Virus genome (UHGV): UHGV-0240017 | Direction: 5' to 3' (one strand) | Length of the DNA: 64,000 bases | From: a virus | Part shown: in pieces, positions 4,158 through 56,411 of the stretch | How positions within the stretch are numbered: position 1 is the first letter of the stretch | Layout of the letters: every line of letters starts with the position of its first letter | Translations under genes and position numbers: made by a program | Notes under the pieces: model-generated | Databases searched by the model: none | The model's input: only the letters and a program-made list of their open reading frames with translations | Told to the model about the DNA's origin: nothing

Positions 4158-6452
4158 TTACTTACCAGCAGCAGCTTTGCCTTCGCCAGCAACGTTACCT
4201 GCTACACCACCTTCGGTTTGTTTCTGACCGTTCTGTTCAACAGAAACATTGTAAGCCAGTTTTTCTTCAACCAGTTTGGTGATGCCTTTAACCCAGATCA
4301 GACCAGTGATCGGGCAGTGGCAGATGTGCGCGTTGCGCGGCTGTACGGCCAGCTCTTTAGAGGTAGAACCGTTACGCTGAATGTTGATGTTAGTAACCAT
4401 GATCGGAGACCAGAAGTGGTTACCCCAGTTCAGCACGTTGTAGGAACCATCGTCCGCAGTCGGAACTTTCAGGAACCATTGCAGACGACGAGTCCAGGAA
4501 CCGTCAGCTGCGTTGTAGATACGCCAGCGGTCATCGTTGGTGGTGATCACTTCGTATTCGTAGCGATCGCCCAGCAGACGTTGGTCACCTTGTACCAGCA
4601 GCAGCATGGATGCAGTCGGTTCGTCGGTTGCAATAACAACCTTCGGCAGAATGTCCGGATCGGCAGTGTACAGACGCAGCGCAGGAATGAAGCGAGATTC
4701 CTGGATAGCCTGAGTTACCTGATTACCGATACGCTGTACCAGGCCCTGACGAGCGTTGATCAGTGCATCTTTGGTATCCAGGGACTGTACAACTTTATCA
4801 ACGTTGTAGTCAGACTCTTTGAACCACGGAGCAACCCAGTGACGGCCCAGGCCACGAATGGCCGGTTTGTCCCACGGAGTGATCATGCTTGCAGCAGCGT
4901 TACGTACCGCTTCGGTGTAAGACAGCGTCTGAGTGATAGCCAGCTGTTCGTTACGGATGTTAACTGCGGAAATCAGGTCGTCCAGACGTTCGGTATCGTC
5001 GTATTCAACGCCAACCGGAGACTTGGTCAGAATCGGAGAACCGTATTGCAGCTTGTAGTTTTCTTGTTCCCAGATTGGGTCGAGCAGCAGACCCTGGGTA
5101 CGACGGTTTTCGTTGGTACGAGTACCATCGAAGCGCCAGCCGATCAGTTCAAGTTTCAGATTTTCCAGGACAGCTTTGCCGGTACCAGTCTTGATATCAA
5201 CTTTGTTACCGGTAGCGTCGTACAGACCTTCGATTTCCAGTTTGTGACCAGCAATGTCAACTTTACCACCGAACTGACCGGTAGTGAACAGAGACATGTT
5301 GATGGTGATCACGTAACGCAGAGTGTAGGAGTTCTGTTCCAGTGTTTTCAGAGCCGGAATAGCTTCGCCTTTCCAGTCGGTAGTTTTCGCGTTCAGAGAG
5401 AACGCAGTACGACGGAATTGCAGTACCAGCTCACGGCCATCACCTTCAGCAGGACGCTGGAAGGTTGCGAACTGCATGTCACGAACGTGCAGTTTAATGA
5501 ATTTACCTGCTTTTGCATCTTCAGCCGCTTTACGTACGGAAATCAGCAGGCTGCCCAGAGCACAACCCGGCGCGATTTCATCAGTTTCGTCGTAACCTTC
5601 GATGACGATACCCGGATGCGCAGACAGCTGGAACAGGTTCAGAGTGTCTTTAGCAAAACTCAGGTAGTTAGTCGGGTACGGAGGTACACGGCCCAGGCGA
5701 ACAGATTCGTTCGGTACCAGATCTTCGCTTACGAAGTATTCCGCGTTTTCACCGGTTTCCATTACGTAAGGAACGATGTTGATCGCTTCGTCCTGGAGAA
5801 CGGTGTGGTCAGTCAGCGCTTCGTGCAGGTTACGACGATGATCTTCAACAACATCTTTGCTCAGCAGTGCGTTCATTACACCACGAGAAACGGTGGTCAC
5901 TTTGGTACGTACGGTAATACCAACATCGTTGGTGTCAACAGTGATGGTCGGGAACAGAGTCTCAGCGAAACGAGACTGGGTTTCCAGAGCACGTACGTTC
6001 AGCGTCCAGGTCAGACCCAGGTTTTTGTCGTAGTCTTTGTTGGTGTAGTATTCCTGAGCGACAACCATACGCTCTTTGCCCCAGTCGCCGTTACCAGCTT
6101 GGGAACCAGGAATCGCAACGTCCAGGTTAAAACGGCTATGGAATTCTGGCTTAGCGTATTCTTGCGCTACTTTTTCTTGCAGGTCCATACCGTGACCAGC
6201 AGCACCCAGAATCATTGCAGAAGCAACTTCCGCAGCGTGGGACATTTTCTTACCGCCAGCAAACGCGTTTGCGTAGTGCTGTGCAGCATCGTCACGCAGG
6301 GTACCAAAAACTTTCGTGTTGCTACGTACAGACTCACCAGCAACGATGGTGTTCCACATTTCGCCAGCAGTGTTGTTACTAATGACGCTTTGTACCAGCG
6401 AGTTACCAGCTTGTACGAGTTTCTCCAGATTAGAGATTCGGGTATCTTTCAT
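4158..6452 (-). CDS. highly expressed major virion structural protein, probably major capsid protein (764 aa)
   Basis: AAGGT Shine-Dalgarno and ATG; antisense strand stop-free over the whole gene (strong codon bias); size matches phiKZ-type capsid proteins (~750 aa, from memory); strong terminator. Confidence 0.6.
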   Translation of the reverse strand: MKDTRISNLEKLVQAGNSLVQSVISNNTAGEMWNTIVAGESVRSNTKVFGTLRDDAAQHYANAFAGGKKMSHAAEVASAMILGAAGHGMDLQEKVAQEYAKPEFHSRFNLDVAIPGSQAGNGDWGKERMVVAQEYYTNKDYDKNLGLTWTLNVRALETQSRFAETLFPTITVDTNDVGITVRTKVTTVSRGVMNALLSKDVVEDHRRNLHEALTDHTVLQDEAINIVPYVMETGENAEYFVSEDLVPNESVRLGRVPPYPTNYLSFAKDTLNLFQLSAHPGIVIEGYDETDEIAPGCALGSLLISVRKAAEDAKAGKFIKLHVRDMQFATFQRPAEGDGRELVLQFRRTAFSLNAKTTDWKGEAIPALKTLEQNSYTLRYVITINMSLFTTGQFGGKVDIAGHKLEIEGLYDATGNKVDIKTGTGKAVLENLKLELIGWRFDGTRTNENRRTQGLLLDPIWEQENYKLQYGSPILTKSPVGVEYDDTERLDDLISAVNIRNEQLAITQTLSYTEAVRNAAASMITPWDKPAIRGLGRHWVAPWFKESDYNVDKVVQSLDTKDALINARQGLVQRIGNQVTQAIQESRFIPALRLYTADPDILPKVVIATDEPTASMLLLVQGDQRLLGDRYEYEVITTNDDRWRIYNAADGSWTRRLQWFLKVPTADDGSYNVLNWGNHFWSPIMVTNINIQRNGSTSKELAVQPRNAHICHCPITGLIWVKGITKLVEEKLAYNVSVEQNGQKQTEGGVAGNVAGEGKAAAGK

Positions 6453-6464
6453 TTGTTTAATACC

Positions 6465-6989
6465 TTAATGAGATAAATGACATGCGTATAATTGCGTCAG
6501 CACTTCGTTAGCGGCAAACTGCGTTGAGGTACTGAAGCAGTCATCCACGACGCGAGTCTTGGTACGCATATATTTAAAAAGTTCTGCGCAGAACATCTTT
6601 TTCGCAGCGTGGTCTTCACCCGAAGAAAAACCCGAACCGGACTTCGCTTCTGCAAATGACGCCACAATCGTATCACCACGTTGAGTAAACACCCAACGTA
6701 CGCGACAAGGAATTGTTTCCCCATATAAATCGTCAAGGGAAACCTTTTCGCCTGATTCGACCAGACGTAACACCTGATCATAATATTTACCTGGAAGCAC
6801 AGGCGGAGCCATCAGTGCTTTATAAATAGCAGAACGACTTACTTCAGGTAAGATAATAGAACTGAAACCATTCGGACAGTCATATAACCAGTTAAAGAAC
6901 CCTGCCTGGAGCAATTCTATACTTTTAACGGCAGCGCCTTTATCTATGTTAGGTTGAACTTCCCACGGTGGACTAAAACGAATTTGCAT
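6465..6989 (-). CDS. hypothetical protein (174 aa)
   Basis: ATG with GGAG upstream; ends 13 nt before next gene start. Confidence 0.6.
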   Translation of the reverse strand: MQIRFSPPWEVQPNIDKGAAVKSIELLQAGFFNWLYDCPNGFSSIILPEVSRSAIYKALMAPPVLPGKYYDQVLRLVESGEKVSLDDLYGETIPCRVRWVFTQRGDTIVASFAEAKSGSGFSSGEDHAAKKMFCAELFKYMRTKTRVVDDCFSTSTQFAANEVLTQLYACHLSH

Positions 6990-18513: not shown

Positions 18514-19155
18514 TCATAAATCTTCAAAGAAAGTAACAACTGCTTCCGAAAGACTAATTTCGAATAGTCCGAAGGTGTTCTCATCTTCGTATTCTTTACT
18601 AGCTATTAGGGGTAATAATTTAAAACAATCGAAAGCCCCATCAGTAACTTTCAACACACGTGGGATTCTTTTCATCCCTTCTATAAGTTCTGACACCGTT
18701 TCCATAACAGCTTCCGCCGATTTTTCAACGGTTTCATACACAGCTTCGTTTTCTGTTGGTGCGATTAAGTGAAAGAAACAAACTGAATCGTACATCCCAT
18801 TTTCTTTTTCACGCAATGCTACGTGACTATCAAGAAACGCATGGTACGTTACTCCGTCATATTCGGCACATCCGATGTCGCGAGTTTTATGCTTGCCGTT
18901 CAGTTCTTTAGCAATGCTGTCCAGTTTATCTTGGGTTATGTCTTTGAAAACAAACTCACGTGTACCAACTAATAAGCCACCCTTCGCTTGGTCTTTAGGT
19001 TTCTTACCAGAAAGTAAGCGCAACCAGGTAGAAATAGAAATCAGTTCTACCGGATTTAAAGTAACAACTTTACTATTCGGTGCCACCATCGTAACAACAC
19101 CTTTATCCGTAGACACAACACCATCAACAAAATCAGTTAAATTAATGCGGCTCAT
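18514..19155 (-). CDS. hypothetical protein (213 aa)
   Basis: ATG at 19155 with AGGAGA SD; promoter-like motif 50-80 nt upstream; bidirectional terminator at 18487-18510. Confidence 0.7.
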   Translation of the reverse strand: MSRINLTDFVDGVVSTDKGVVTMVAPNSKVVTLNPVELISISTWLRLLSGKKPKDQAKGGLLVGTREFVFKDITQDKLDSIAKELNGKHKTRDIGCAEYDGVTYHAFLDSHVALREKENGMYDSVCFFHLIAPTENEAVYETVEKSAEAVMETVSELIEGMKRIPRVLKVTDGAFDCFKLLPLIASKEYEDENTFGLFEISLSEAVVTFFEDL

Positions 19156-19207
19156 GATATTTCTCCTAAACGTAATAAACAAGTCGTAAAGAGATTACTG
19201 TGTAATC

Positions 19208-19232
19208 TCACCTAGGTAATATATATCTGAAA
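19208..19232 (-). promoter_or_regulatory. phage promoter-like element, second copy of the 10953 motif
   Basis: TCACCTAGGTAATATATATCTGAAA on plus, i.e. TATATATTACC on minus, upstream of 18514..19155. Confidence 0.5.
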
Positions 19233-19246
19233 ATTATTTTAATCGA

Positions 19247-19293
19247 AAAAAAAAAGAAAAGAGAGAACCACCCCATTACAGGGTGGTTCTCTT
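19247..19293 (-). terminator. intrinsic terminator after acidic paralog A
   Basis: AAGAGAACCACCC-TGTAATG-GGGTGGTTCTCTT hairpin followed by T10 on the minus strand. Confidence 0.8.
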
Positions 19294-19309
19294 ACTAAAC
19301 AATCAGGGA

Positions 19310-20575
19310 TTATTTAGATTTTTCGTAAGCGCCGATACCGGCACTCAGGTAACCGTTCAGACCACCGGCCAGGTGTTTCTGAGTAGAAGCAATAACCTTC
19401 TCACCCAGAGACAGACCCTGGTTAACGCTGGTGATGAAACGACGGGCAGCACGTACACCTTCGGTCAGTTCCGGTTTTTCGTCGATCTTAACTTTATCGA
19501 CTTCTTTCAGGAGCTTATCGATATTATCTTCAAAGGTTTTACGCGCGCTTTCGACTTTACGATAATCCTGAACGTTTTTCTCAATCTGTTTACCCACTTC
19601 GTTGAAGAGGGCATTAATTTTGGCCAGTTCGCCAACAGACGGAGTTTTCACGCTAGTTTCAACGCTGTTTTCAGCTTCAACAAAGGTGGAGCTGAAGCCG
19701 CCTTCGTTGTCATACTCGGTTTTCACCGCCATGTTACCGAGCTTGAAGTTTTGGAGACTGTCTTGTTTGGACAGTTCGGTAAAGTCGGCTTTCAGTTTTT
19801 CAACTTTAACACCATTACCTTTGGTAACATCGGAAACCACTTCAGCAGCTTTAGCGGCCATGGCAGGCATCTTAGCGCTATAGAACGAGGAGACCTGGTT
19901 AAGGATACCTTTCAGTTTCGGAATATTATCGCCGACGAACTTGCCGTCGATAGACAGAGACTTGATAAAGCCACCAGAGATCTCATCTTTCTTCTGTTTG
20001 CCCAGCTTACGAATAACTTCATCGTATTTCTTAGCACGCGCCTGAATAGATTTACCCTGGTTGTGGAATTTCAGCCAGCGATCTTTCAGTTTGCGGCCTT
20101 GTTCTTTCAGCCAATCGAGAATACGGCCCAGGAAGGCTTTGATGTCTTCCCACAGGGATTCACGAGCAACCTGACGACGGTTACGAGAACCGTAGGATTC
20201 GTGAGCAACAGAAGAACGGTGTTCGAAGTTCCAACGAGAACGGATAGATTCCTGAGCAACGTCCAGCGCAGTCGCAGCGTCGTCCGGCATATCTTCTTCG
20301 GCGTCCATCGGTTCTTCACCGTCTTCGCCAGCACCTTCACCGTCAGCAGCAGCCTGAGCTTCATCCAGAACATCCAGCTGAGCGTCAGTTTCGTCGCCGT
20401 CTTCTGCCAGCAGTTCAGCGTCAGCGTCCAGAGCTTCGATCGGTTTGGTGTCATGCTCGATATCGGCCAGAGTGCCTTCTACGGATTCTGCTGGCAGTTC
20501 GATGCCGTCTGGAACTACAGTAGAAGTAGACTCCATAGACTCACGAGCAATTTTGTTTTTGTAGAAATTCGCCAT
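19310..20575 (-). CDS. highly expressed acidic protein, paralog A (N-terminal D/E-rich region, K-rich coiled-coil-like middle); possible head scaffold or internal virion protein
   Basis: ATG at 20575 with GAGGAAAAG SD; stop-free antisense strand (codon bias); same architecture as 20658..21929. Confidence 0.65.
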   Translation of the reverse strand: MANFYKNKIARESMESTSTVVPDGIELPAESVEGTLADIEHDTKPIEALDADAELLAEDGDETDAQLDVLDEAQAAADGEGAGEDGEEPMDAEEDMPDDAATALDVAQESIRSRWNFEHRSSVAHESYGSRNRRQVARESLWEDIKAFLGRILDWLKEQGRKLKDRWLKFHNQGKSIQARAKKYDEVIRKLGKQKKDEISGGFIKSLSIDGKFVGDNIPKLKGILNQVSSFYSAKMPAMAAKAAEVVSDVTKGNGVKVEKLKADFTELSKQDSLQNFKLGNMAVKTEYDNEGGFSSTFVEAENSVETSVKTPSVGELAKINALFNEVGKQIEKNVQDYRKVESARKTFEDNIDKLLKEVDKVKIDEKPELTEGVRAARRFITSVNQGLSLGEKVIASTQKHLAGGLNGYLSAGIGAYEKSK

Positions 20576-20657
20576 TTTAAGCTTTTCCTCTAAGGGGAAC
20601 AATACGTTCCCCTGATGATTTATTTCAAGAACTGTACGGAACTACGAATCTAAATGA

Positions 20658-21929
20658 TTATTTAGATTTTTCGTAAGCACCGATACCAGCACCCAGGTAG
20701 CCATTCAGACCGCTAATAACGGTGTTAGCAACATAGCTAACTGCGCGGTTCAGGGTCTGGTAGTTCTTAACAGACCAATCGGCAGCTTGACGTGCGTTAC
20801 GCAGGCCATCCCACTTGCTATCGTCTTTTTCGTTGTTCAGCGCCTTAGCAGCATTCTCAGCAGCCTGTTGCAGCTTCACGATTTCAGAATCGTAAGCACG
20901 GAAATCTTTCAGTACGGCTTCGAAGCCTTTACCGATTGCTTCCAGAGCAGAAGCAGCACCAGCCATTTCAGAAACAGACGGAGTTTTCACGTCTTTATCG
21001 TCAGAAGCGTCACCGGTGCTCATGAAAGCAATTGCGGTGAACTTGTGGCCGCCAGCCAGTTCTTTAGTACCAGCCTGAATGTATGCGTTGCCTGGCAGTG
21101 CCAGCAGTTTAGACGCATCGCCTTTTTCAAAATTCGGCAGAGAATGCAGTTTAGACGCTGCTTTACCGAACAGGTCTACAGGCTGATCGCCGCGCATTGC
21201 TTTGAAGGAATCGTCGTCACCCTTGCTCACAGCAGTTACAGCTTCACCGGCCTGTTTTTCCAGAGCACTGATGGAACCTTTAGCTTTACCAGCAGTAACT
21301 TCTTTCGCAATAGCGATAGAGCCAGCAGCATCGAATTTACCTTCGATAGACAGCTTGGTGATAAACCCGCCAGAGATTTCATCTTTCTTCTGTTTGCCCA
21401 GCTTACGCAGCATTTCCTGATATTTCTTCGCACGTTTCTGCGCGGTCTTACCGACGTTGAAATATTTCAGTTTCAGGTCTTTGATCTTCGCAATCACTTC
21501 TTTACAGAACTGAATGAAACGATCGTAAAGATCTTTCAGGGTTTCTTTCCAACCTTCCTGGGCAGCAGCAGTCATACCACGGCCACGACGATAGGATTCG
21601 CGAGCCAGTTTAGTACGTTCCAGGCACCAACGACGTGCGATGGATTCCTGTGCCACTTCGTGCAGGGCAACCGCTTCTTCCGGCATTTCTTCACCGTTAG
21701 CAACGGCTTCTTCCGCCTGTTCGATAGCGTCTTCAGTACGCTCGGTATCGGCAGCCAGGGTTTCACCGTCGGTTTCCAGCTGATCGAGCTGACCGTCGAT
21801 AGATGCTACGTCCGCAAGTTGGACGTCCAGGTTCTCTTCTGCCGGTTCAACGTTGCTGATACCGTCGATTACTTCATCGGCCGCTTCCATCGATTCACGA
21901 GCGGCGCGAGTTTTTGCGAAATTTGCCAT
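20658..21929 (-). CDS. highly expressed acidic protein, paralog B
   Basis: Starts MANFAKTRAARESME versus MANFYKNKIARESME in paralog A; shares KKYxEx(I/L)RKLGKQKKDEISGGFI and C-terminal GLNGYLxAGIGAYEKSK; stop-free antisense strand. Confidence 0.7.
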   Translation of the reverse strand: MANFAKTRAARESMEAADEVIDGISNVEPAEENLDVQLADVASIDGQLDQLETDGETLAADTERTEDAIEQAEEAVANGEEMPEEAVALHEVAQESIARRWCLERTKLARESYRRGRGMTAAAQEGWKETLKDLYDRFIQFCKEVIAKIKDLKLKYFNVGKTAQKRAKKYQEMLRKLGKQKKDEISGGFITKLSIEGKFDAAGSIAIAKEVTAGKAKGSISALEKQAGEAVTAVSKGDDDSFKAMRGDQPVDLFGKAASKLHSLPNFEKGDASKLLALPGNAYIQAGTKELAGGHKFTAIAFMSTGDASDDKDVKTPSVSEMAGAASALEAIGKGFEAVLKDFRAYDSEIVKLQQAAENAAKALNNEKDDSKWDGLRNARQAADWSVKNYQTLNRAVSYVANTVISGLNGYLGAGIGAYEKSK

Positions 21930-21944
21930 TTCGTTTATTTCCTT

Positions 21945-21956
21945 TGGTTATATAAC
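21945..21956 (-). promoter_or_regulatory. GGTTATATAACC palindrome, possible promoter variant for acidic paralog B
   Basis: TATATAACC resembles TATATTACC; about 20 nt upstream of the 21929 ATG. Confidence 0.3.
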
Positions 21957-21988
21957 CCAATTACACGCCCCTAGAATGAGGGGCCCCC

Positions 21989-34832: not shown

Positions 34833-36134
34833 TTACGTAATGTGGATCGATGGATTAAATTCGTGTACCACAGTCTCTTTACCGTGCATCGCGGCCATTG
34901 CCACGGACATAACGTTAGAGAACGCCGAGGATATATCCGCAGCGATTGCGCGAGGTTCTTCCCCTTTATTCGCAGACGAACACGCTGTGCAGGTGTCGAT
35001 GTGGCCATACTGACATAAGATGGGTCGGCGTAACCGCACCACTTTACCTAACTGCTGTTTTAAATATTCCTCAGTCAGTGGTGTCAGCTTACCATTAACC
35101 ATCGCATTCATCCCAACGTAACGTTTTACGTTATCTTCGGTAATCACAACTGGATACGTTAGTTTCGTTCCACAGTCACCAGGGACGATTCGGTGGTTCT
35201 GGAAAATCATCTGGATAATACGTACCTGCTCACCCCCTTTCGCTGTTTCCGCACCACGAGAGAACGAACCTTCACGAATAGAGTTGAATTTCGCGACCAG
35301 GTTTTCCATCCCCGCTTTATCAACTTCAACTAATGCGTTCGGAATGAGCGTATAATGACCCCCTTCCTGAAAAGACGATTCAATACCGTACATCAGCATT
35401 AATTTACGTCGACGCATCCGCGATTTCGGCGAGTTATAAAACTCAATAGATTGGTCACCCGACAACCACTCTTTATCTAACTCATCCAGCGCTTTTTCAA
35501 TCTTAACGATAACGGCAGGATCGTCTAACTCGTCTTTGTGCTTCAACAGTAACGCGTCGCGGATTTTATACGCATCAGGATGCACAGTGAGGCTACGCAA
35601 CGTACCGGTTGGTGCAATACCTGACGTGAGCGGTGCGAGCTCGTGTAAGCCGCTTACAAAGCGCTCAATCATACTCGGTCGAATTGCACCCTCGTTTTCT
35701 GGCTCATCAGTTTCATGGTCTAAACAACGACGATGCATCTCTTTGCGATATTCCAACGGGTTTTGTGAAATCGCCAGATAAGGTAAGCGTGTACCGAATG
35801 CATACCAGATAACAATCCAGTTAAAAACGTAACGGCCTACTGTTGTGGGAATAGGACCGTCTAAACCGGGATAATCGTCAGGGCGTAGCTCGAACTGTTC
35901 TTCGGGGATAAACAGCTCCTGGTCCTTTACGCCGTCAGTAATCGGTTCCCAACTGCCCTTACCGTCTTCTACAGCGTAATAATGCGGTAAGCCGTCGATA
36001 TACGTTATATCAAACGCTTCGGGTTCTTCGCGCCCTGTTGGAAACACCGACATGTTAAAAATAGCAATACGCCAAACCAGACGTCGCCACGCTTCTGCTT
36101 TACATGCCGCTACTAAGAACTCAAACCTCGTCAT
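34833..36134 (-). CDS. hypothetical protein (about 433 aa) with C-terminal Cys/His cluster
   Basis: Track start 36152 is TTG; ATG at 36134 follows GAGGAGG; CQYGHIDTCTAC near C terminus. Confidence 0.6.
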   Translation of the reverse strand: MTRFEFLVAACKAEAWRRLVWRIAIFNMSVFPTGREEPEAFDITYIDGLPHYYAVEDGKGSWEPITDGVKDQELFIPEEQFELRPDDYPGLDGPIPTTVGRYVFNWIVIWYAFGTRLPYLAISQNPLEYRKEMHRRCLDHETDEPENEGAIRPSMIERFVSGLHELAPLTSGIAPTGTLRSLTVHPDAYKIRDALLLKHKDELDDPAVIVKIEKALDELDKEWLSGDQSIEFYNSPKSRMRRRKLMLMYGIESSFQEGGHYTLIPNALVEVDKAGMENLVAKFNSIREGSFSRGAETAKGGEQVRIIQMIFQNHRIVPGDCGTKLTYPVVITEDNVKRYVGMNAMVNGKLTPLTEEYLKQQLGKVVRLRRPILCQYGHIDTCTACSSANKGEEPRAIAADISSAFSNVMSVAMAAMHGKETVVHEFNPSIHIT

Positions 36135-36975
36135 CGTGTTCTGCCTCCTCAACCTGATAAATCAGCCGTAGGCTTTTTAATGCAGGTTGTAAAACAGTAA
36201 TGGGTTGTAACCCATCATTATTAAGTTTCTCTAAGTTCGTCGAAAGATCGGCATAGGCGTCATCGAAATCATCGTTATCGATAATCGAAAGTCCTACCGT
36301 ATACATCTCGAGTAATTCTGTTTCGCTGTAATCTTCGACGTCAAACACCAACGATTGTTGGACAACCGTCAAATCAGGATCTTCAGGTAAGTTTAAGAAT
36401 ACGAACGCAGAGGGGTTTTGCGGATAAAGGCGCAAGTATTCTGCAATACGCGCCAGACGCGCATCGTTACCTACTGCGAGTTGTTCATCCACAACCATAG
36501 CTGAGAGATAGTTACGCATCACCGTCATTACACGGGGTGAAACACGAATGACCAAATCTTCAAAATGGATATTGTCGTCGCCGTATACGTAACGACAAAT
36601 ACTTTCCAGGATAAACTCTGGCGTCTCTCCAGACATCACGAGACCGTATAGCGTATCTGTGTCTTCGAACTCTTCGAATTTAGACGTAATACCATCCAGA
36701 ATACGCACGGTCTCTTTCGGTTTACGGAAAACTTCTTGTGGGTTTAAAGCAACGCCTAAACGGTTGCCTAACGCCACGGCGCATTTTACAATAATCCCTT
36801 CCAGTCTTACAGTTTCGTCAGCAGGATCGGACGACGGTTGCCAATACACATCGCTTAACGCAACATCGTAACCGTAATCCATACACAGCGTTACTAAGTC
36901 CAGGAAAGGCGCAGCACGTTCTTCCGCACGATTGACGGTAAGAACGGCGGCGTAATCGGTATAAATGTCAATCAT
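36121..36975 (-). CDS. hypothetical protein (about 284 aa)
   Basis: Track start 36987 is TTG; first in-frame ATG at 36975. Confidence 0.6.
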   Translation of the reverse strand: MIDIYTDYAAVLTVNRAEERAAPFLDLVTLCMDYGYDVALSDVYWQPSSDPADETVRLEGIIVKCAVALGNRLGVALNPQEVFRKPKETVRILDGITSKFEEFEDTDTLYGLVMSGETPEFILESICRYVYGDDNIHFEDLVIRVSPRVMTVMRNYLSAMVVDEQLAVGNDARLARIAEYLRLYPQNPSAFVFLNLPEDPDLTVVQQSLVFDVEDYSETELLEMYTVGLSIIDNDDFDDAYADLSTNLEKLNNDGLQPITVLQPALKSLRLIYQVEEAEHDDEV

Positions 36976-42052: not shown

Positions 42053-42094
42053 GCTCCCCTCTTACAAAAAAAGAGGGGCGCAGGCCCCTCTCGT

Positions 42095-44194
42095 TTACTC
42101 AATGATAGTCGCGGCCACCGTATTGTCGTATAACGACGCCGGACGTTTACGCGACGTGTAGAAACGCACGTTGTCCAGGTTTTTCTGTTGGCCTTCGAAT
42201 AACAACATCGGTACCGCTGAACGCATCGCAATCAACGTATTGTGATCCTCGAAACGTTTGCCATCCATCGCATCAGCATCTTCACTATCAAACCCAACCG
42301 CCGGGAAAGGATTGGTCGGTGATTCAACGCGTGATATCGCCAGCATAATCGCGATGTGTGTCATCGGAATACCACCGAGCTTACGTTGGATATATTTAAA
42401 CACATCAAATAACGCGTGCGTACATTGTTTCTCCGTAGCACCACGCATCTGAACCAGAGTCGTTGGTTTTACCTTACCTGACTTCTTGCTCAAACGCATT
42501 GAGTCATCAGAGAACTGTTCGAAAGTATCCGATTTATCAGACGCAACCGAACGAAGTTTCAATTCTAACCCTGCTACAAACTCCGCCATAGATTCAGACC
42601 GATTCGTATAAATTAGTATCGGCCAACTCGGTTTCCATCCTTTCAGGGGAATCCGTACCAGCTTCTTCGACGGGAAGGTAATGTTATCGCGCTGTTTCAG
42701 GAAGAAATGCAAGAAGGCTTTCGAGAAGTTACCACAAACCCCCATACGGACGTCAATGGGATCTTCAGCCAACACATTCCCAGCTTCATCCAACCGCAAA
42801 AAGGTCAGTTCGTTAATCTCCGGCAATGCCGTTTCGTCAATCACTTCCAAATCGTCGTGATACGCGATTTGGCTGATTTCAGAATAGACTTCATCAGAAA
42901 TAACGAGTTGGTATTCATCCCAATTACCGTACTGTGGTTTCTCCCGTAAACTCAACCCTTTTACGGAGTTGTGTTTATACTCCCCAAGATAATCCCGCAT
43001 TCTTGGGGTCAGCACCAGATTCAGCAGATAGCGTAAGAAGTCCAGGTGTTTCGTTGAGAGAATCCCCTGCGTACCCTTTTCAGATATCGAGGTTGAAGCC
43101 AAGTGACCTGGGGACGTTCCCGGCGAAAGGTTATAAATCAAATCACCCATGCACGTTGCACAAATGCTTTGACGTGCCATCCCCTTACAACACATCGCAC
43201 TACGAAACTCAATAGGTTTGCCTAAGACTTTCTCAAACTCCCCTTTCTCGAAACGTAGCCACGGACCCCCCACACCTTCAAAACGATAACGCATTCCCAC
43301 CATCGCATCGTACTTCTTACGCTCCAGTTTACTTTCTGTAAACGTGTGACGGTGAACATGATGCGTACCACAATCGTCGTATTCGAAATACATTAACACG
43401 TTAGCTGCTAACTGTAGCTTACGTGACGCATATTCCGCATCGGCGATTTTATCGGTGTTATACAGGTGAGAACGTGACGTTGCACCTGCTTCTTTCAGAC
43501 GGCTAATTACAGAATGTAGGCCCGTGAAGAAACCTTCCCATACCTGGTTAGAATAAACACGAGAATCAATCTCTGATGTTTTCCCGCGTATATACGCCTG
43601 AAGAACCTGGTTCATTTTGATGGTCTTATCCAAGACCGACATCACCACAGGGTTTAAACGAAGTTGTGGGTCTTTGAAGATATCTTCGATAAGAAGATAC
43701 GCTTCCTCAACCATATCCCGACCTTCTTCGTCGTATCCAGTAGGATACATTTGTGCCCACTGATGAATCTGCGTAAAATTTCGGTGTTGGTAAATTTCCA
43801 TCATCGTATCGTAGTCAATCGTGACGCAATACGACAACAGATTTTTCACCGATAAGTTAAACGCATCCGCATAGACGTGCTGCTGCAATAAATAGCGGGT
43901 ATCTGCTAAATCCACACCCGCTTTACGTGCTGCCACAGCTGCCAATGACATAAACTTCAGATGTGCGTCATCTGTAGCAGTGTCGCCATGTTTATACGCC
44001 ATTTGCGAACTGATTGGGATCTGCGGATAAAATCGTGTTAGCCCCCAATAAGGCCAACTGATTTTAATGTGGCGTCCTGACATGTTTAAGGTTATTCCGT
44101 CATCGAACGTCACTTCATATCTGCCGCGCAATAGCCACACCTGATCCGAGTTCAGTTTACACAGATCACGCACGTGAACTGGAGTGCCCTTCAT
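42095..44194 (-). CDS. putative RNA polymerase subunit (beta-prime-like fragment, speculative), coupled to the beta-like gene
   Basis: Start overlaps stop of the beta gene (rpoB-rpoC-like order); internal CCKGMARQSICATCMG resembles the beta-prime zinc finger, otherwise divergent. Confidence 0.4.
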   Translation of the reverse strand: MKGTPVHVRDLCKLNSDQVWLLRGRYEVTFDDGITLNMSGRHIKISWPYWGLTRFYPQIPISSQMAYKHGDTATDDAHLKFMSLAAVAARKAGVDLADTRYLLQQHVYADAFNLSVKNLLSYCVTIDYDTMMEIYQHRNFTQIHQWAQMYPTGYDEEGRDMVEEAYLLIEDIFKDPQLRLNPVVMSVLDKTIKMNQVLQAYIRGKTSEIDSRVYSNQVWEGFFTGLHSVISRLKEAGATSRSHLYNTDKIADAEYASRKLQLAANVLMYFEYDDCGTHHVHRHTFTESKLERKKYDAMVGMRYRFEGVGGPWLRFEKGEFEKVLGKPIEFRSAMCCKGMARQSICATCMGDLIYNLSPGTSPGHLASTSISEKGTQGILSTKHLDFLRYLLNLVLTPRMRDYLGEYKHNSVKGLSLREKPQYGNWDEYQLVISDEVYSEISQIAYHDDLEVIDETALPEINELTFLRLDEAGNVLAEDPIDVRMGVCGNFSKAFLHFFLKQRDNITFPSKKLVRIPLKGWKPSWPILIYTNRSESMAEFVAGLELKLRSVASDKSDTFEQFSDDSMRLSKKSGKVKPTTLVQMRGATEKQCTHALFDVFKYIQRKLGGIPMTHIAIMLAISRVESPTNPFPAVGFDSEDADAMDGKRFEDHNTLIAMRSAVPMLLFEGQQKNLDNVRFYTSRKRPASLYDNTVAATIIE

Positions 44195-46431
44195 TATTCA
44201 TCGCCCCTTTTCATTTTCACCAATTCAAACCCTTCACAGCTGTGGATGTTTTTCATCATCCTGTCAATCTGCGAATCCCCTAACGGGAATTTATTCCGGT
44301 CTACCAGTGGACCTGGATTAGACGGGGTTTGAGATCGATAAAGCCCTACTAAAATCTCACGATGCACCGCAGGGTTATTTGCCCTGTCGTGAACTTCTTC
44401 GTAGTTACCTGGACCATAACCCGCTAACAGTCGTTCTTCCGAAGGACCAGCCCATTTTAGCGTTTTATAGTTTATCGGATACGAACCACGTCCTTGGTTA
44501 GACGCGTCTATCGTACCCAGATAATTCAGATACATTGACGAGATACTGGAAAACTCACGACCTGTTTTATCCAGACGTAATGTCTCCACACCACCTACGT
44601 AAAACTCATTTTTTGTCCATTCCTGTTTACCATCGAAATTAGTAATCAGGAGTTTGGATTTACGCGGTTTAAATTCACCCAACCGTTCACTAATATCGAC
44701 TGGTGTGTCGTCAAGTTCATGTGGTAAGTAAATACGGATTGTAAAATCGTAAATCTCTTTGAAAAGTTCGCGTTGTAAATCCTCCGTAGGATGTGTTACC
44801 TGTAGTGTGTTGGCCCATTCAGGATTAAAGCGTGACAGATAATCCATCAGAATTTCCCAACACTCACTGATACGACCTTCGTCCAGCATCGGTTTAAGAC
44901 GCATCTTCAACTGCTCAGACGCAGCTGACCAATACATGTGGAATAATGCTGCATAAGTCGAGCGACGAATTACAGCGTTCATCGAACGTAAAACGTGAAC
45001 ACGTTCACCGAATTCGTTAATCGGCATCTGTTCAACGGGTAATACACGACCAACAATCCCTTTCGTGCCCGAGCGGTCGGTAATCTTAGACGACACCGTT
45101 ACCGGGATCGGATAACGAACAGCAATACGAATGGTATACGTGTTGATGGGATCGCTGAGTCCGCGTTGTACTGGCGAGGTCAACTTAGAAAGAATCTGCT
45201 GACTGACATTTTCTTTACCGTATTCACCACGACGAATTGCTTCATCAATCACCACGCGTATCTCTTCACGAAACTCGTGATAGACCTCGTACGTTTCAGA
45301 AGCGAACGCTTTTTCCAACAACACACACGCTTTCGGCGACCAGATAATATTTTTGTCACGGGACATCGAGAAATAGAATCGTACGATGGCATTGTAATAG
45401 TCTTTCAATGCTAACGCGTATTTATCCAGCTCTCGTTTGTTCTCTTCGGTACAAGAAATATTGTTAGCACCATTCGCACAAGACGTTTCATCACGCCACA
45501 CCTGGATATCGACGATACGTGTACCGCTACGTTCCATCAGTTCTTTGTCACCTGCAAGACGTGCTTTATAGTGAACGGGATCGGCATCCACATATTCGCA
45601 GCTATCGAAGAACGGAGAGACGTGTTGGGTTTCCCCAAGCGACGCATCAATTGCACCGTAAAGCTCATCGAAACGACGCGATGCAATGACCAACCCATCG
45701 TCACGAATAGCCTCTCCTACATCCGGGAAATACCGTGGGACGCGATTACCGTTCGGATCGATATAACCGTAAGTATCCAGTAAAAACTCGTCTTCACGTA
45801 GCGTCTTTTCAACGATTTTCAAACCATAACCGTGGAGTTTTTGGGCGGCGTACTCAGAGATGGTGTAGGAATCCTCGATGATATCAGGATGCGAAATCGT
45901 AACGGTTGGTAGCACGACGCTATCGGCGTACTCGCCTTCCACCATACACGACATCGTTGTAAGGATTTCATCCTTTTCCAACTGATCGGTTTCGCCACGT
46001 AAAATACTACGCAGTTTCATCGACTCACGTTTCTCAGATGAGAAGATGTTGTCGTGGTTAGTATAGAAATTAATCTCCAGCACATCTATCATGGTTTTAC
46101 CGCCCTTCATTTCTGCACGGCGGAAGAAGATAGCATGTTCCAACGCTTTAGAATCCCCACGACGTCCATAACGTGTAAACGTCGCGCGGCGCTGACGACC
46201 GTCTTTGGTCATATAGTGGCAGATGCTACCGGGATCTTCTACAACGTCATTGAACAGAAAATCGTGGTAGTTTATATCAGCCCCTGTAAAATGTGGCGAT
46301 GGTTCAGGATTGTCGATAGGGACCGCAGACTTCATATGGTTGCCTACCATCGATGCCCTTGCACCTGATACTTCGGTGATATTAATCTCACGGTCAGCCA
46401 CACTGCTCATTAGCTCTACTGGCGTTTTCAT
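44194..46431 (-). CDS. RNA polymerase beta subunit homologue, C-terminal half
   Basis: DRSGTKGIVGRVLPVEQMP...VHVL..NAVIRR matches GDKMAGRHGNKGV...PVEDMP...VDIVLNP.GVPSR; GTRIVDIQVWRDE matches GTVIDVQVFTRD; LNYLGTIDASNQGRGSY matches LNHLVDDKMHARSTGSY. Confidence 0.7.
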   Translation of the reverse strand: MKTPVELMSSVADREINITEVSGARASMVGNHMKSAVPIDNPEPSPHFTGADINYHDFLFNDVVEDPGSICHYMTKDGRQRRATFTRYGRRGDSKALEHAIFFRRAEMKGGKTMIDVLEINFYTNHDNIFSSEKRESMKLRSILRGETDQLEKDEILTTMSCMVEGEYADSVVLPTVTISHPDIIEDSYTISEYAAQKLHGYGLKIVEKTLREDEFLLDTYGYIDPNGNRVPRYFPDVGEAIRDDGLVIASRRFDELYGAIDASLGETQHVSPFFDSCEYVDADPVHYKARLAGDKELMERSGTRIVDIQVWRDETSCANGANNISCTEENKRELDKYALALKDYYNAIVRFYFSMSRDKNIIWSPKACVLLEKAFASETYEVYHEFREEIRVVIDEAIRRGEYGKENVSQQILSKLTSPVQRGLSDPINTYTIRIAVRYPIPVTVSSKITDRSGTKGIVGRVLPVEQMPINEFGERVHVLRSMNAVIRRSTYAALFHMYWSAASEQLKMRLKPMLDEGRISECWEILMDYLSRFNPEWANTLQVTHPTEDLQRELFKEIYDFTIRIYLPHELDDTPVDISERLGEFKPRKSKLLITNFDGKQEWTKNEFYVGGVETLRLDKTGREFSSISSMYLNYLGTIDASNQGRGSYPINYKTLKWAGPSEERLLAGYGPGNYEEVHDRANNPAVHREILVGLYRSQTPSNPGPLVDRNKFPLGDSQIDRMMKNIHSCEGFELVKMKRGDE

Positions 46432-46446
46432 TTTAATGCTCCTTTA

Positions 46447-46467
46447 GGTTGATTCAGTAGGATAATA
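46447..46467. promoter_or_regulatory. ATAATATCTA-type promoter-like motif in a divergent intergenic region
   Basis: GTAGGATAATATCTATCTCAC between minus gene start 46431 and plus gene start 46495; related to the 60064 and 60143 repeats. Confidence 0.4.
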
Positions 46468-46494
46468 TCTATCTCACTTATTTTAGGAACGATT

Positions 46495-46818
46495 ATGTTA
46501 GACAATTTTATTACCCTAGAAGAATTCATACCTGCGCCTTACACCACGACATGGAAAGTGATGCACGATTACACAGACTATCTGCGTAAACACCCGAAAA
46601 CTAAAATAGAAAATGTTGACCCACGCTACAGTTGGCCTGAGGTCCACAATTTCTACGCCTACTGTAAACTCAAAGGTTACGCCGATATCATTATCTATCC
46701 GATGATGCTATTAAACGGGCTAGAAGACCCCATGAATTTCACCCCTGAAATCACGCAACTAATCGTACCCGACGTCGGAACGGTTAGTGAGATTATTAGC
46801 ACCATCGGTAATGATTAA
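46495..46818 (+). CDS. hypothetical protein (107 aa)
   Basis: ATG; terminator hairpin 46823-46841 immediately downstream. Confidence 0.6.
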   Translation: MLDNFITLEEFIPAPYTTTWKVMHDYTDYLRKHPKTKIENVDPRYSWPEVHNFYAYCKLKGYADIIIYPMMLLNGLEDPMNFTPEITQLIVPDVGTVSEIISTIGND

Positions 46819-46855
46819 AAAAAGAAGGGACCGAGTCCCTTCTTTTATACTTCAC

Positions 46856-48211
46856 TTAACGCGTAAATGCCGAAGTTGCAAATCCACCGAAACTGCTGTT
46901 CGTTGCAAATGCTGAACTCGTGCTAAACGCGCTAGTCCCACCGACATCCCCGCTGAAAGAATTATTCCCTCCACCAAAGGTACTTGCCAAAGAACCTCCG
47001 GTATTCCCTACACCAAAAATACTCTGACCACCGAAAGGTGACACCTTGCGCTCACCACCAAACGCATCCACAACAGAAATTCGACTTACCATACCGTTGG
47101 CAGGGCTAGTTGTTCCGTGTTGCTCAGCGTAACGTTGCATCGCTGGCGTCAAATTCCCATAAGGACTTCGCGCGGCCATGTTACGTTCACGAGCACGGAA
47201 GAATTCCATCGGATCTGACTTATCCGCTTTATCCGCATCCGATGCACGTTTTTGTGGAATCTGCTGCGGAGCCTGCGCACGATCGATACGGAAATCATGC
47301 GCCGTGGTATCACGTTCAGGGCTGTCAGAACGTGGGCCGGTGTTATACGGTAAAGTCTGAATAACGTTATCGTAAATATCCATATTGTCCAGCTGAGAAA
47401 TCCATTCATCTTCCAACGGACGTAAAGATGTGTGGTCGCGCAATCCCTTAACGACATTATTGTAATTCACAACGTACTGCGCCCAGCCACGTGCTAAGCA
47501 ACCGAAATACGGACGCGAATCATTAGACCCCGTTACGCTCGGATACCAACCGAACACGGTGGTCAGTAAACGGTGGATAATGATTTTGTCTTGTTTACGT
47601 TGAAGCTTCGCAGAGAAGTACATTGCAGTACCATCTAACGATTCTTCTTCGAACATATTCCGATAATTAGCTACGCGGTTAAACTTCACGCCGTCGATAA
47701 CTAAATCAGATGCAATAAAAAGCTGGGTGATCTTGTGCTTTTTATCTTTTTCCAATTGTCCATAGACGAACGCTTTCACCGCTTCCCAGGATTTCACCAA
47801 ACGTTCGTCGAACGTCGGATCTTTCATCCCTTCGCAAATCTGTTCTGTTAAGAACTTCTTGTAGGATGCAGAACGTACTGCTTTACCACTTGCCCCCGTT
47901 TCCAGAATCGCGTCGATTAATGCAAAGGAGCGAATGAACAGGTTCGCATTAATGGATTTCTTCAGGAAACGAATTGTCCCTGATTCACCTGCCAGTACCG
48001 ATTCACACAGTGGATGAAATGCCTGACATTCGCGACCATCATCGTCTTCCATACCACGCTTAATCATCGCTGGGGTGGGAAGCGCCAAACGGCGCTTCAC
48101 TTTGTTATACGTAAACTCTGCCGGTTCACCACCGTCACGAGTGAGTAAATCGTTTTCAAAATCGAATCCTTGTGATTTAAGAAACGATTTGTAGAATTCA
48201 ATAATTTTCAT
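46856..48211 (-). CDS. hypothetical protein (451 aa) with Gly/Ser/Phe-rich disordered C-terminal tail
   Basis: ATG start; last ~65 aa FGGQSIFGVGNTGGSLASTFGGGNNSFSGD...SSFGGFATSAFTR. Confidence 0.7.
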   Translation of the reverse strand: MKIIEFYKSFLKSQGFDFENDLLTRDGGEPAEFTYNKVKRRLALPTPAMIKRGMEDDDGRECQAFHPLCESVLAGESGTIRFLKKSINANLFIRSFALIDAILETGASGKAVRSASYKKFLTEQICEGMKDPTFDERLVKSWEAVKAFVYGQLEKDKKHKITQLFIASDLVIDGVKFNRVANYRNMFEEESLDGTAMYFSAKLQRKQDKIIIHRLLTTVFGWYPSVTGSNDSRPYFGCLARGWAQYVVNYNNVVKGLRDHTSLRPLEDEWISQLDNMDIYDNVIQTLPYNTGPRSDSPERDTTAHDFRIDRAQAPQQIPQKRASDADKADKSDPMEFFRARERNMAARSPYGNLTPAMQRYAEQHGTTSPANGMVSRISVVDAFGGERKVSPFGGQSIFGVGNTGGSLASTFGGGNNSFSGDVGGTSAFSTSSAFATNSSFGGFATSAFTR

Positions 48212-49970: not shown

Positions 49971-51683
49971 TTATTGATTAAACCATGCTACTTCTTCGCA
50001 TTTCTTTCTGTTTTGAATTAACAGAAATTCTGCTAACATGTTCTGAAGTCGCGGATGAGGTGAATAGTCCAACATCACTGTCCCACACCGTAACATTCTG
50101 GCTGCTTCCGGTGTTGCCCTGAGATTGAAGTTGAACGGCGCAATATGTTCACGAACCAACAAGCTGAGAGAATCCTTCAATGTTGATTGTTCGTAAGTAT
50201 TACGATGTTTACGGTATGCTTGTGGATAATATCTATCCGTTTTTATTTTAATCTCATTATCGATAGGCTCGATGGGATACCCGCCATTTAGTGGTGCCCG
50301 GATCATTTCACAACTTAACAACTGTGCAATCTCAGGCATTCCGTAATAGATGTAAACGGCTTGGGATATACCCATCGCATTCTTAAACGCTTCTGCGTCG
50401 ATTTCCTTGTATGTACGACGATCTGCAAATCGGTGCATCACTGCCGCCACCAACCATTCGTAGAGTTCGTAGAACGGATACTGATGGTTAATGTTGATAG
50501 AATCTATCAGCACTTTCACATCTGCGGGAGCAATATCGAGATTCAAAGCACGCACCGCACGACGATAGTCATTAAAGAATTCTTGAGTACGAACGAATTC
50601 CTTCATTGGTGCTTTAGTCCGAGCTTGAACCAAGTCAATCGACGAAGTTTTCCCCTTCTCGCCATTGAACATGATTTTCTCAGGATTCGCTTTTAGCATC
50701 ACGTTTTGGCCGGAAATTTTTCCCGCGAAGCCCGTTTCGATTTCTTGTCGAATATTGAAATACATCCCCGCCACGATGTTGTTTTCAACCATCGTACCTG
50801 GCGGTAGTTCGGCACCGATTAACTTCATTGCAATTAAACGGATAACGGCGAACGCTATGATGTATTCCTCTACCATATCCGTACCGTAGCCACAGATAGA
50901 TGCCAGGACGGTAAGGTTTGCAGTATTAGGTCCTTTACTCCCCCCGTCCTGAACTTTCGAAATCACCGACACTAAAAACTCACGCAACTTTGTAATGGCT
51001 GGCAGTGTAGCAATCTCGGTATCAGACAACAACTCCATGCAGTAGGTCAGGTTATAAACACTTTTGCGCTTCGACTCAACAGAAGCACGTGTTGCAGGAA
51101 AAGCGTCCAAAATCAAGAATACGGGAATAAACGGTTTTGTCATCAAAGACAAAATCACCAATTCGTAATAATCTTGTACGATATACGTCATCTCTTTTGG
51201 ATAATTCGACGACATCTCTTCGTACGTTTCGTGGACGTTTTGAGGAATCCACACCGAACCGTGTGGATAAAGCTGGCGGAATCTATCTGCGTGGTGAAAT
51301 TTAGCAATTCTCGCGACGAGCGTGGGGACGTGTTCACGAATAACTTCTGGGGGCTCATTAGCTAACAACTCTAATTCTTCGTAAACTGAAAACAGTTCGC
51401 TTTTCTCTTCAGGCGTTAAAGTTGACCAATAACGCTCGATTTCCATGAACATGATTTTATCGTGCGTTACGATCTGTCCGAAACTATCGCGTACGTCTGG
51501 CACATTCACGTCTTTACGTCCATTTCGGAAACCATTAAACGCGACCTCTTTTTCGCCGTACTTTATCACTAAACGGTCACGATTCTTTTCAATGCGCATT
51601 TTAAAATCTCCAGGAATAACATAGTCGTCCACTAAGATAAAATCTATCTCAGATAACTTCGACTGTATTCTACACACATACAC
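49971..51683 (-). CDS. hypothetical protein (570 aa)
   Basis: Long ORF; start probably GTG; terminator hairpin 51692-51711 upstream of next gene. Confidence 0.65.
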   Translation of the reverse strand: MYVCRIQSKLSEIDFILVDDYVIPGDFKMRIEKNRDRLVIKYGEKEVAFNGFRNGRKDVNVPDVRDSFGQIVTHDKIMFMEIERYWSTLTPEEKSELFSVYEELELLANEPPEVIREHVPTLVARIAKFHHADRFRQLYPHGSVWIPQNVHETYEEMSSNYPKEMTYIVQDYYELVILSLMTKPFIPVFLILDAFPATRASVESKRKSVYNLTYCMELLSDTEIATLPAITKLREFLVSVISKVQDGGSKGPNTANLTVLASICGYGTDMVEEYIIAFAVIRLIAMKLIGAELPPGTMVENNIVAGMYFNIRQEIETGFAGKISGQNVMLKANPEKIMFNGEKGKTSSIDLVQARTKAPMKEFVRTQEFFNDYRRAVRALNLDIAPADVKVLIDSININHQYPFYELYEWLVAAVMHRFADRRTYKEIDAEAFKNAMGISQAVYIYYGMPEIAQLLSCEMIRAPLNGGYPIEPIDNEIKIKTDRYYPQAYRKHRNTYEQSTLKDSLSLLVREHIAPFNFNLRATPEAARMLRCGTVMLDYSPHPRLQNMLAEFLLIQNRKKCEEVAWFNQ

Positions 51684-56126: not shown

Positions 56127-56411
56127 TTACCCCGCCAATTTTAATAATTCCGAGTCAAGCGCGATACCGGCTTCCAAGTCCTCTTCAGTATCCTGGAAGA
56201 AACTGTTTATGTTGCTGATATTCTCGTTATGGAGAATCATGCAACTCGAAACCTCGTCCACATTCGTGCTTGACATAAACCCGTTGTCTGGGCGATAAGC
56301 CATGCCCAGTTCCATTTCAATCTGGTCGATTGCCAATCTGCATTGTAACTGGTCGCCATCGAAATCCTGTTTGTCCACTCCATTCCTTTTGGAGCAGGTG
56401 TGCAATGACAC
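56127..56411 (-). CDS. RNA polymerase beta-prime homologue, 3' exon (contains DFDGDQ catalytic motif)
   Basis: ...SLHTCSKRNGVDKQDFDGDQLQ... versus bacterial LHPLVCAAYNADFDGDQM; track start is a GTG inside the intron/exon boundary, true exon probably begins near 56402-56408. Confidence 0.7.
   Translation of the reverse strand: MSLHTCSKRNGVDKQDFDGDQLQCRLAIDQIEMELGMAYRPDNGFMSSTNVDEVSSCMILHNENISNINSFFQDTEEDLEAGIALDSELLKLAG

Follow-up and report, generated by a model that had tools for sequence, protein, structure and literature searches.

Layout of the gene pair

The viral genome UHGV-0240017 was analyzed over a stretch of 64,000 nucleotides, hereafter called the window, in which two adjacent genes on the minus strand are related to the large subunits of multisubunit RNA polymerases (RNAPs). 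It is well known that phiKZ-like jumbo phages characteristically encode split multisubunit RNAPs. As developed below, the two genes almost certainly encode the C-terminal half of the beta subunit (beta-C) and the C-terminal half of the beta-prime subunit (beta-prime-C) of one phiKZ-type non-virion RNA polymerase (nvRNAP), carried by an uncultivated jumbo phage resembling Salmonella phage SPN3US and Erwinia phage Asesino. The pair and its junction are as follows.

44194..46431, minus strand: gene assigned as nvRNAP beta-C, 745 amino acids, orthologue of phiKZ gp71-73 and SPN3US gp34
42095..44194, minus strand: gene assigned as nvRNAP beta-prime-C, 699 amino acids, orthologue of phiKZ gp74 and SPN3US gp35
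44192..44196, minus strand: stop/start overlap TAATG, read from the sequence

Both open reading frames (ORFs) are present at the coordinates and on the strand given in a previous sequence-only reading of this DNA, and the overlap between stop and start which it had reported is confirmed. It amounts to a single base, 44194, which is common to the TAA of beta-C (44196..44194) and to the ATG of beta-prime-C (44194..44192) within the TAATG. The junction reads GAT GAA TAATG AAG. Regarding translation signals, the ATG of beta-C is preceded, 7 nucleotides upstream, by the ribosome-binding site AAAGGAG, which was rated good, and a purine-rich Shine-Dalgarno-like stretch (AAAGGGG) is located inside the end of beta-C, just 5' of the beta-prime-C ATG.

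This organization has been retained among relatives. The stop of beta-C overlaps the start of beta-prime-C by 1 or 4 nucleotides in all 16 related IMG/VR loci that were compared (53-99% amino-acid identity), and the full length of both genes together with their overlapping arrangement is kept across relatives down to 53% identity. The ratio of nonsynonymous to synonymous substitutions (dN/dS), calculated against one relative at 88-92% amino-acid identity, is about 0.04 for both genes, and the beta-C and beta-prime-C genes are under strong purifying selection. Chance ORFs are excluded as an explanation of the pair. The two genes constitute a two-gene unit which is probably translationally coupled. 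A programmed frameshift fusing beta-C to beta-prime-C was also envisaged and rejected, as a TGA is found in the beta-prime-C frame two codons before the ATG and the junction has no slippery site.

The C-terminal half of beta

The product of 44194..46431 matches phrog_3295 ('RNA polymerase beta subunit') with an E value of 3.2e-251, residues 1-744 being aligned to positions 8-695 of the 698 positions of the profile. In the PDB, it matches gp71-73 of the phiKZ nvRNAP (7ogp_C) in two collinear stretches with an E value of 3.5e-29, and a beta-C profile built without phiKZ recovers the same chain at E 2.8e-40. Chain C of the AR9 nvRNAP (7s00_C) is likewise matched, at E 3.6e-14 and, by profile, at 5.6e-19.

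The similarity of this ORF to the active-site region of beta, on which the sequence-only reading was built, is real and exceeds chance. The Pfam model RNA_pol_Rpb2_6 scores 24.3 bits on residues 430-507 (E 2.1e-5), just above its gathering score of 23.4, and bacterial beta chains in the PDB are matched with an E value of ~2.5e-5, residues 433-503 falling on positions 859-931 of a beta chain of 1169 residues. The PDB search also placed residues 444-518 on positions 1060-1134 of the 1342-residue E. coli beta, and a profile alignment pairs residues 442-521 with E. coli beta 1057-1136, a span which includes K1065 and K1073. There, SSK449-ITDRSGT-K457-G of beta-C is aligned to DK1065-MAGRHGN-K1073-G of E. 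coli beta. Alignment A1 (6 relatives) shows no variation at either lysine, K449 or K457, and they correspond to K386 and K394 of gp71-73, which are named in the paper describing the 7OGP cryo-EM structure (PMC8287921). As judged from these alignments, beta-C holds the second double-psi beta-barrel with both of its conserved active-site lysines. The replacement of the second barrel lysine by an arginine (R462) had been considered and was dropped, since E. coli numbering identifies K1065/K1073 with K449/K457, both of which are kept.

Because about 430 residues precede the active-site motif, and this motif is situated close to the last quarter of the bacterial beta chain, beta-C corresponds approximately to the C-terminal half of the subunit. 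Its gene is uninterrupted by an intron. The earlier proposal that the ORF begins in the middle of the bacterial protein, and hence that beta is split, is matched by the finding of the N-terminal half as a separate gene (1179..2954), homologous to phiKZ gp123.

In local Smith-Waterman alignments of segments 1-80, 150-260 and 600-745 of beta-C with E. coli beta, the scores were no better than those of shuffled sequences, and the NCBIfam rpoB model TIGR02013 gave 24 bits on beta-C, far below its equivalog cut-off of 801. Two resemblances of beta-C to E. coli beta, at the motifs 'NRALMGANMQRQAVP' and 'FEDS', were noticed by eye and are regarded as hints only; a collinear, non-significant profile stretch to a cyanobacterial beta backs the first of them.

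The C-terminal half of beta-prime

The second gene of the pair, 42095..44194, had been judged too divergent to be placed in the sequence-only reading. It can now be assigned as the C-terminal half of beta-prime on the basis of full-length homology to gp74 of the phiKZ nvRNAP (PDB 7ogp_D), with an E value of 2.5e-32 over residues 8-689 on chain positions 8-667. It matches in addition phrog_3015, a family with an RNA polymerase beta subunit annotation (E 1.3e-224, residues 5-694), and chain D of the AR9 nvRNAP (7s00_D) is matched by the beta-prime-C profile at E 5.6e-14.

Regarding cellular enzymes, a profile of 7 relatives searched against the whole PDB placed residues 179-384 on E. coli beta-prime 718-937 with an E value of 1.2e-6. 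The span of beta-prime-C aligned to the E. coli protein takes in the F loop, the bridge helix, the cysteine residues C814/C888/C895/C898 and the first trigger helix. In the profile alignment, GATSRSHLYNTDKIADAEYASRKLQLAANV of beta-prime-C is aligned to the bridge-helix/trigger-helix region of E. coli beta-prime; SISEKGTQGILSTKH383 is aligned to SIGEPGTQLTMRTFH936 of the E. coli protein.

In gp74, the bridge helix extends from L242 to Y279, the trigger helix from T365 to V383, and the zinc ligands are C288/C341/C350/C353 (PMC8287921). A global alignment maps the bridge helix to residues ~229-266 of beta-prime-C, the first trigger helix to residues ~360-378, and the zinc site to C275/C336/C345/C348. 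The beta-prime-like cysteine cluster that had been pointed out in this ORF is thus genuine, and alignment to both gp74 and E. coli identifies it as the conserved Cys4 zinc site. C336, C345 and C348 are invariant in alignment A2, which comprises 7 sequences including phiKZ gp74; C275 is part of a DDCGT motif conserved across the clade and is listed too among the A2 columns. The STKH383 motif also belongs to the invariant columns of the beta-prime-C alignment. By sequence comparison, the bridge helix is present in beta-prime-C, as is the first trigger helix together with its conserved histidine residue, H383.

Models of cellular subunits perform poorly on this protein: Pfam Rpb1_5 reaches 15.8 bits for a cut-off of 28.5 and nothing scores above threshold, while the NCBIfam search of beta-prime-C returned no match. 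These sub-threshold scores fit the known extreme divergence of such phage enzymes. Considering both proteins of the pair, Pfam Rpb2_6 alone among the curated cellular RpoB and RpoC models scores above its cut-off. Beta-C and beta-prime-C are to be regarded as distant homologues of fragments and not as bacterial-type subunits.

A non-virion polymerase

In phiKZ, two sets of subunits have been described: gp178, gp149, gp180 and gp80 for the virion RNAP, and gp55, gp68, gp71-73, gp74 and gp123 for the non-virion enzyme (PMC8287921). All phiKZ RNAP subunits, taken from the phiKZ record, were compared with the proteins of the window by blastp and by profiles. This comparison, which had been proposed along with the sequence-only reading, places both ORFs in the non-virion set, as parts of one enzyme. 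By blastp, beta-C matches gp73 (1.8e-18) and gp71 (9e-12), versus an E value of 1.2 for the virion subunit gp178 and no match to the virion subunit gp149. Similarly, beta-prime-C matches gp74 at 3.4e-41, versus 0.004 for gp80 and no match to the virion subunit gp180. The profile searches echo these results, both ORFs resembling the non-virion paralogues more than the virion ones.

The gene order around the pair follows that of phiKZ gp65-gp75, with an SbcD-like gene, two genes of no known function, gp68-, gp69- and gp70-like genes, beta-C, beta-prime-C and a helicase gene. It also agrees with SPN3US gp30-gp36.

According to a different interpretation, both ORFs would encode subunits of the virion-packaged RNAP, which is injected with the DNA and carries out early transcription. 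Phages of this group do possess two sets of beta/beta-prime fragments, which the names used in related records ('beta subunit 1', 'beta subunit 2') do not separate, and the weak match of beta-prime-C to virion gp80 is located around the zinc site, where the profile gives 1.2e-6 in a 15-sequence database. However, the non-virion proteins gp71/gp73 and gp74 are the best matches by more than 15 orders of magnitude, those to gp178, gp149 and gp180 not being significant, and the true gp80 orthologue is a separate gene of the window (34833..36152). Moreover, the virion beta of phiKZ is split otherwise, into pieces of 1451 and 224 amino acids, and the local order in the window agrees with the phiKZ nvRNAP cluster gp68-gp75. 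The case of SPN3US points in the same direction, as its gp35 has been treated as the beta-prime subunit of the nvRNAP in a genetics and proteomics study, in which the virion set consists of gp241, gp218, gp240, gp42 and gp244 (PMC5105663). Collectively, the paralogue comparison, the pattern of the virion beta split and synteny appear to rule out a virion enzyme, an assignment that we consider very improbable.

Partner subunits and the beta-prime-N intron

Beyond the pair assigned to the nvRNAP, homology searches identified further polymerase genes in the window.

1179..2954, minus strand: beta-N, orthologue of phiKZ gp123 (phrog_2943, E 7.1e-170; 7ogp_E, E 2e-17)
49971..51598 as the likely extent (49971..51683 as called mechanically), minus strand: gp68-like fifth subunit (phrog_3209, E 2.8e-154; 7ogp_B, E 4.4e-10)
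56127..58084, minus strand: beta-prime-N, orthologue of phiKZ gp55 / gp56.1 (phrog_2987, E 4.5e-141; 7ogp_A, E 4.7e-32)
56367..56716, minus strand: group I intron of 350 nucleotides without an endonuclease ORF (Rfam RF00028)
34833..36152, minus strand: virion RNAP beta-prime-like piece, orthologue of phiKZ gp80 (phrog_2962, E 5.6e-169; blastp to gp80, 9e-47)

The window encodes all five subunits of the nvRNAP and one subunit of the virion RNAP. It had been suggested that pieces of one, and possibly two, phage RNAPs were present; the complete non-virion set and a virion gp80-like gene have now been found. The phiKZ gp80 itself is annotated as a structural head protein, and it has been listed among the virion RNAP subunits (PMC8287921). 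For beta-N, blastp to gp123 gives 1.7e-18 over residues 58-583.

The gp68-like gene calls for a correction of its start. The phrog_3209 match begins at residue 27 of the mechanically called ORF. The first 28 codons that follow the mechanical GTG start at 51683 contain a terminator hairpin and an AT-rich motif (51634..51647), and the ATG at 51598 has a ribosome-binding site. The true start of this gene is probably the ATG at 51598 and not the GTG at 51683.

The gene at 56-58 kb, which had been described as beta-prime-like and intron-containing, proved to be beta-prime-N (7ogp_A) interrupted by a group I intron (RF00028). Using the intron-less homologue from pEa_SNUABM_29 as a query, tblastn retrieved beta-prime-N in two pieces located in different frames. 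Exon 1 corresponds to 56717..58084 and exon 2 to 56127..56366, and the spliced product has 535 amino acids. The RF00028 model covers 56415..56732 with 56.9 bits, for a gathering score of 50 (E 8.6e-12). The limits of the intron were derived from the alignment to the homologue, with a 5' exon ending in U and an intron ending in G. The insertion separates NA from DFDGD within the catalytic motif of beta-prime-N, and the spliced model, which reads ...KAPNADFDGDQ..., aligns without gaps to the pEa_SNUABM_29 homologue. NADFDGD is the universal Mg-binding motif, and it is restored by excision of 56367..56716.

These data also bear on the idea that the two ORFs are diverged and catalytically dead relics of a polymerase, which would fulfill another role or none. 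The divergence from cellular RNAP is indeed extreme, and significance is limited to short segments. Nevertheless, every residue to which the work on the phiKZ structure ascribes a functional importance is retained, and the low dN/dS (~0.04) is accompanied by conservation of the full length and of the overlapping arrangement down to 53% identity. In addition, the partner set is complete, with NADFDGD intact after splicing, and the nvRNAP of phiKZ has been reported to be essential (bioRxiv 10.64898/2026.09.21.753271). A catalytically dead pair is therefore extremely improbable.

Candidate transcription signals around the pair

Several candidate transcription signals flank the nvRNAP gene pair or recur elsewhere in the window.

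46459..46472, minus strand: candidate early promoter, AT-rich motif ATAGATATTATCCT, 29 nucleotides 5' of the beta-C ATG
42066..42092, minus strand: intrinsic-terminator-like hairpin GAGAGGGGC-CUGC-GCCCCUCUU followed by a T run, from the terminator scan
46820..46846 (46816..46846 in a wider delimitation), no strand assigned: hairpin bordered by an A run and, at its opposite side, a T run, from sequence and fold
46459..46472, 51634..51647, 60065..60078, 19213..19226 and 10958..10971, all minus strand: copies of the AT-rich motif
50223..50236 (minus strand), 60144..60158 (both strands) and 19517..19530 (plus strand): further copies of the AT-rich motif

Upstream of beta-C, ATAGATATTATCCT is kept at the identical position in 12 of the 12 relatives compared. 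Searched with at most 2 mismatches, the AT-rich motif ATAGATATTATCYT has 9 matches in the window versus 1.27 expected, a count that none of 100 shuffled sequences reached. Copies are found 30-50 nucleotides before the gp68-like gene (likely start), the gene 58169..60016 and the gene 18514..19182. The motif was often observed just after a hairpin. According to a review, the early promoters of each RNAP-encoding jumbo phage bear a phage-specific AT-rich motif of ~10 nucleotides near position -10, which is read by the virion RNAP (PMC7598289). By analogy, the AT-rich motif of the window is a candidate early-promoter consensus of the clade and may function as a promoter. A scan for sigma-70-type promoters returned 16 sites versus 15.6 in shuffled sequences; this lack of excess is expected of a phage which does not use the host polymerase. 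We know of no earlier candidate early-promoter consensus for the SPN3US-like clade.

At the other end of the pair, the GC-rich hairpin 42066..42092 begins 2 nucleotides past the stop of beta-prime-C and precedes the helicase gene, whose ATG is at 42052. Its predicted fold has an energy of -16.8 kcal/mol (z -3.05). In 15 of the 15 relatives whose sequence extends that far, both the stem and the T run are retained and the loop varies. The hairpin 46820..46846 (-16.0 kcal/mol, z -4.53) folds better than any of 200 shuffled sequences and lies between two convergent genes, the gp70-like gene, ending at 46856, and the plus-strand gene 46495..46818. This hairpin probably terminates transcription in both directions and would shield the beta-C/beta-prime-C unit from upstream transcription. 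The gene 46495..46818 is a small conserved gene (phrog_3455, equivalent to SPN3US_0033) situated on the strand opposite to the pair, between the gp70-like gene and beta-C. As for the pair itself, it would form an early two-gene transcription unit.

Proposed mode of action

In phiKZ, the second barrel, part of the clamp and the flap come from beta-C, which also contacts gp68; beta-prime-C provides the bridge helix, the trigger loop and the zinc finger, and beta-prime-N the Mg site (PMC8287921). In the same enzyme, which is devoid of alpha and omega subunits, gp68 acts like an integral sigma factor (PMC8287921). Transcription of the late genes has further been attributed to the nvRNAP, with no need for the host polymerase (PMC7598289).

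For the phage of the window, the following course of events can be proposed. After injection, the virion RNAP would transcribe the pair early, probably from the motif 46459..46472, and transcription would probably end at the hairpin 42066..42092. Ribosomes ending beta-C would probably restart at the overlapping ATG, leading to matched amounts of the two halves. Beta-C and beta-prime-C would then join beta-N, the gp68-like subunit with its sigma-like role and the spliced beta-prime-N, in which NADFDGD binds Mg. Such a five-subunit complex would contain neither alpha nor omega and would carry out the late transcription of the phage without the host polymerase. We infer the assembly, the subunit roles and late transcription in this phage from the work on phiKZ.

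In phiKZ, a 2026 preprint reports, single subunits rely for their nuclear import on others, gp74 and gp71-73 being among the subunits relied on (bioRxiv 10.64898/2026.09.21.753271). Given this dependence, one may speculate that matched synthesis of the two halves is useful. In an extended form of this scenario, the pair may be an insulated early bicistron, with its own promoter motif and flanking terminators, in which the overlap enforces a 1:1 and possibly co-translational pairing as a prerequisite for assembly and nuclear import; this extension is tentative and, on present grounds, rather doubtful.

Several points weigh against the assignment of the pair and the scenario built on it. Outside residues 430-520 of beta-C and 179-384 of beta-prime-C, resemblance to the cellular subunits does not reach significance by itself, and the parts concerned are assigned on the phiKZ structure. 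The timing of expression, the absence from the virion, the formation of a complex and its activity are transferred from phiKZ, at ~25% identity. The stop/start overlap allows translational coupling without proving it, and beta-prime-C has a Shine-Dalgarno-like stretch of its own. Finally, the promoter and terminator roles are deduced solely from consensus and conservation.

Relation to known systems

The closest described systems are found in the SPN3US group. The counterparts in Salmonella phage SPN3US (gp34/gp35; SPN3US_0034, SPN3US_0035) and in the Erwinia phages Asesino, phiEaH2 and pEa_SNUABM_29 have the same lengths, 745 and 699-701 amino acids, and identity to the deposited orthologues is 70-77% (76-77% for beta-C of Asesino and phiEaH2; 70% and 75% for SPN3US and its relatives). 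In SPN3US, Asesino and phiEaH2, the records already label these orthologues as RNAP subunits, and orthologous genes have been characterized in part. The group shares the 1-nucleotide stop/start overlap as well as the flanks, namely the gp70-like gene, the small antisense gene, the hairpin and the helicase gene, and no functional difference from it was detected. At the DNA level, the best match among deposited phages is 72% over 79% of the region, whereas 99% matches are obtained with uncultivated IMG/VR contigs (220-225 kb) only.

With Pseudomonas phage phiKZ, the homology is full-length and the barrel lysines, the bridge helix, the trigger helix, the Cys4 site, the gp65-gp75 neighbourhood and the five-subunit set are in common, while both window proteins are only ~25% identical to their phiKZ counterparts. 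The organization of the genes differs. The phiKZ beta-C gene is split by an intron with an HNH endonuclease gene (gp72), whereas that of the window is continuous; gp73 and gp74 are 30 nucleotides apart, whereas the window pair overlaps. The beta-prime-N genes of phiKZ and of the window are interrupted by an intron at one and the same site, the annotated gp55 ending in ...KAPNG, but the phiKZ intron is accompanied by the HNH gene gp56, whereas the window intron, of 350 nucleotides, has no endonuclease. In pEa_SNUABM_29, one of the closest deposited relatives, there is no intron at the beta-prime-N site.

The nvRNAP of Bacillus phage AR9 (PDB 7S00, chains C and D) has the same split beta-C/beta-prime-C architecture, at a far greater distance. 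The genome of AR9 contains uracil, the phage has no nucleus, and promoters are read on the template strand by the promoter-specificity subunit (PMC7598289). With bacterial RpoB and RpoC, the elements of the catalytic core are common, but in the phage each subunit corresponds to two genes scattered in the genome.

The enzyme, its split architecture and the beta-prime-N intron have already been described for phiKZ and SPN3US, and only the phage is new. The value of the present assignments thus lies mainly in annotation: the window belongs to a phiKZ-like jumbo phage which encodes RNAP and falls in the SPN3US/Asesino group, and all five nvRNAP subunits are assigned, including the previously unplaced beta-prime-C. 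The conserved overlap, the terminators and the candidate promoter motif are minor additions; nevertheless, the clade-wide overlap, the flanking terminators and the AT-rich motif provide testable signals of the layout of polymerase gene expression.

Other genes of the window

The gene 58169..60016 (minus strand; 615 amino acids; phrog_8316) is located directly upstream of beta-prime-N, at the position occupied in phiKZ by gp54 (chimallin), and is preceded by the AT-rich motif. Its product gave no match in the PDB or in Pfam, BLAST likewise showed no resemblance to gp54 (E 0.25), and the gene is accordingly kept unassigned. According to the literature, the SPN3US chimallin is only ~10% identical to the 201phi2-1 protein. 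By its position, the product of 58169..60016 is a possible nuclear shell (chimallin) protein.

Near full-length antisense ORFs on the plus strand were observed opposite the major head gene (4218..6476) and opposite the gene 58169..60016 (58076..60025). Two others, 19283..20593 and 20787..21974, also on the plus strand, mirror two internal-head-protein genes. These antisense ORFs probably arise as a side effect of the codon usage that highly expressed genes have. The internal-head-protein genes themselves, 19310..20602 and 20658..21929 (both minus strand), are adjacent paralogues, and both match phrog_2497.

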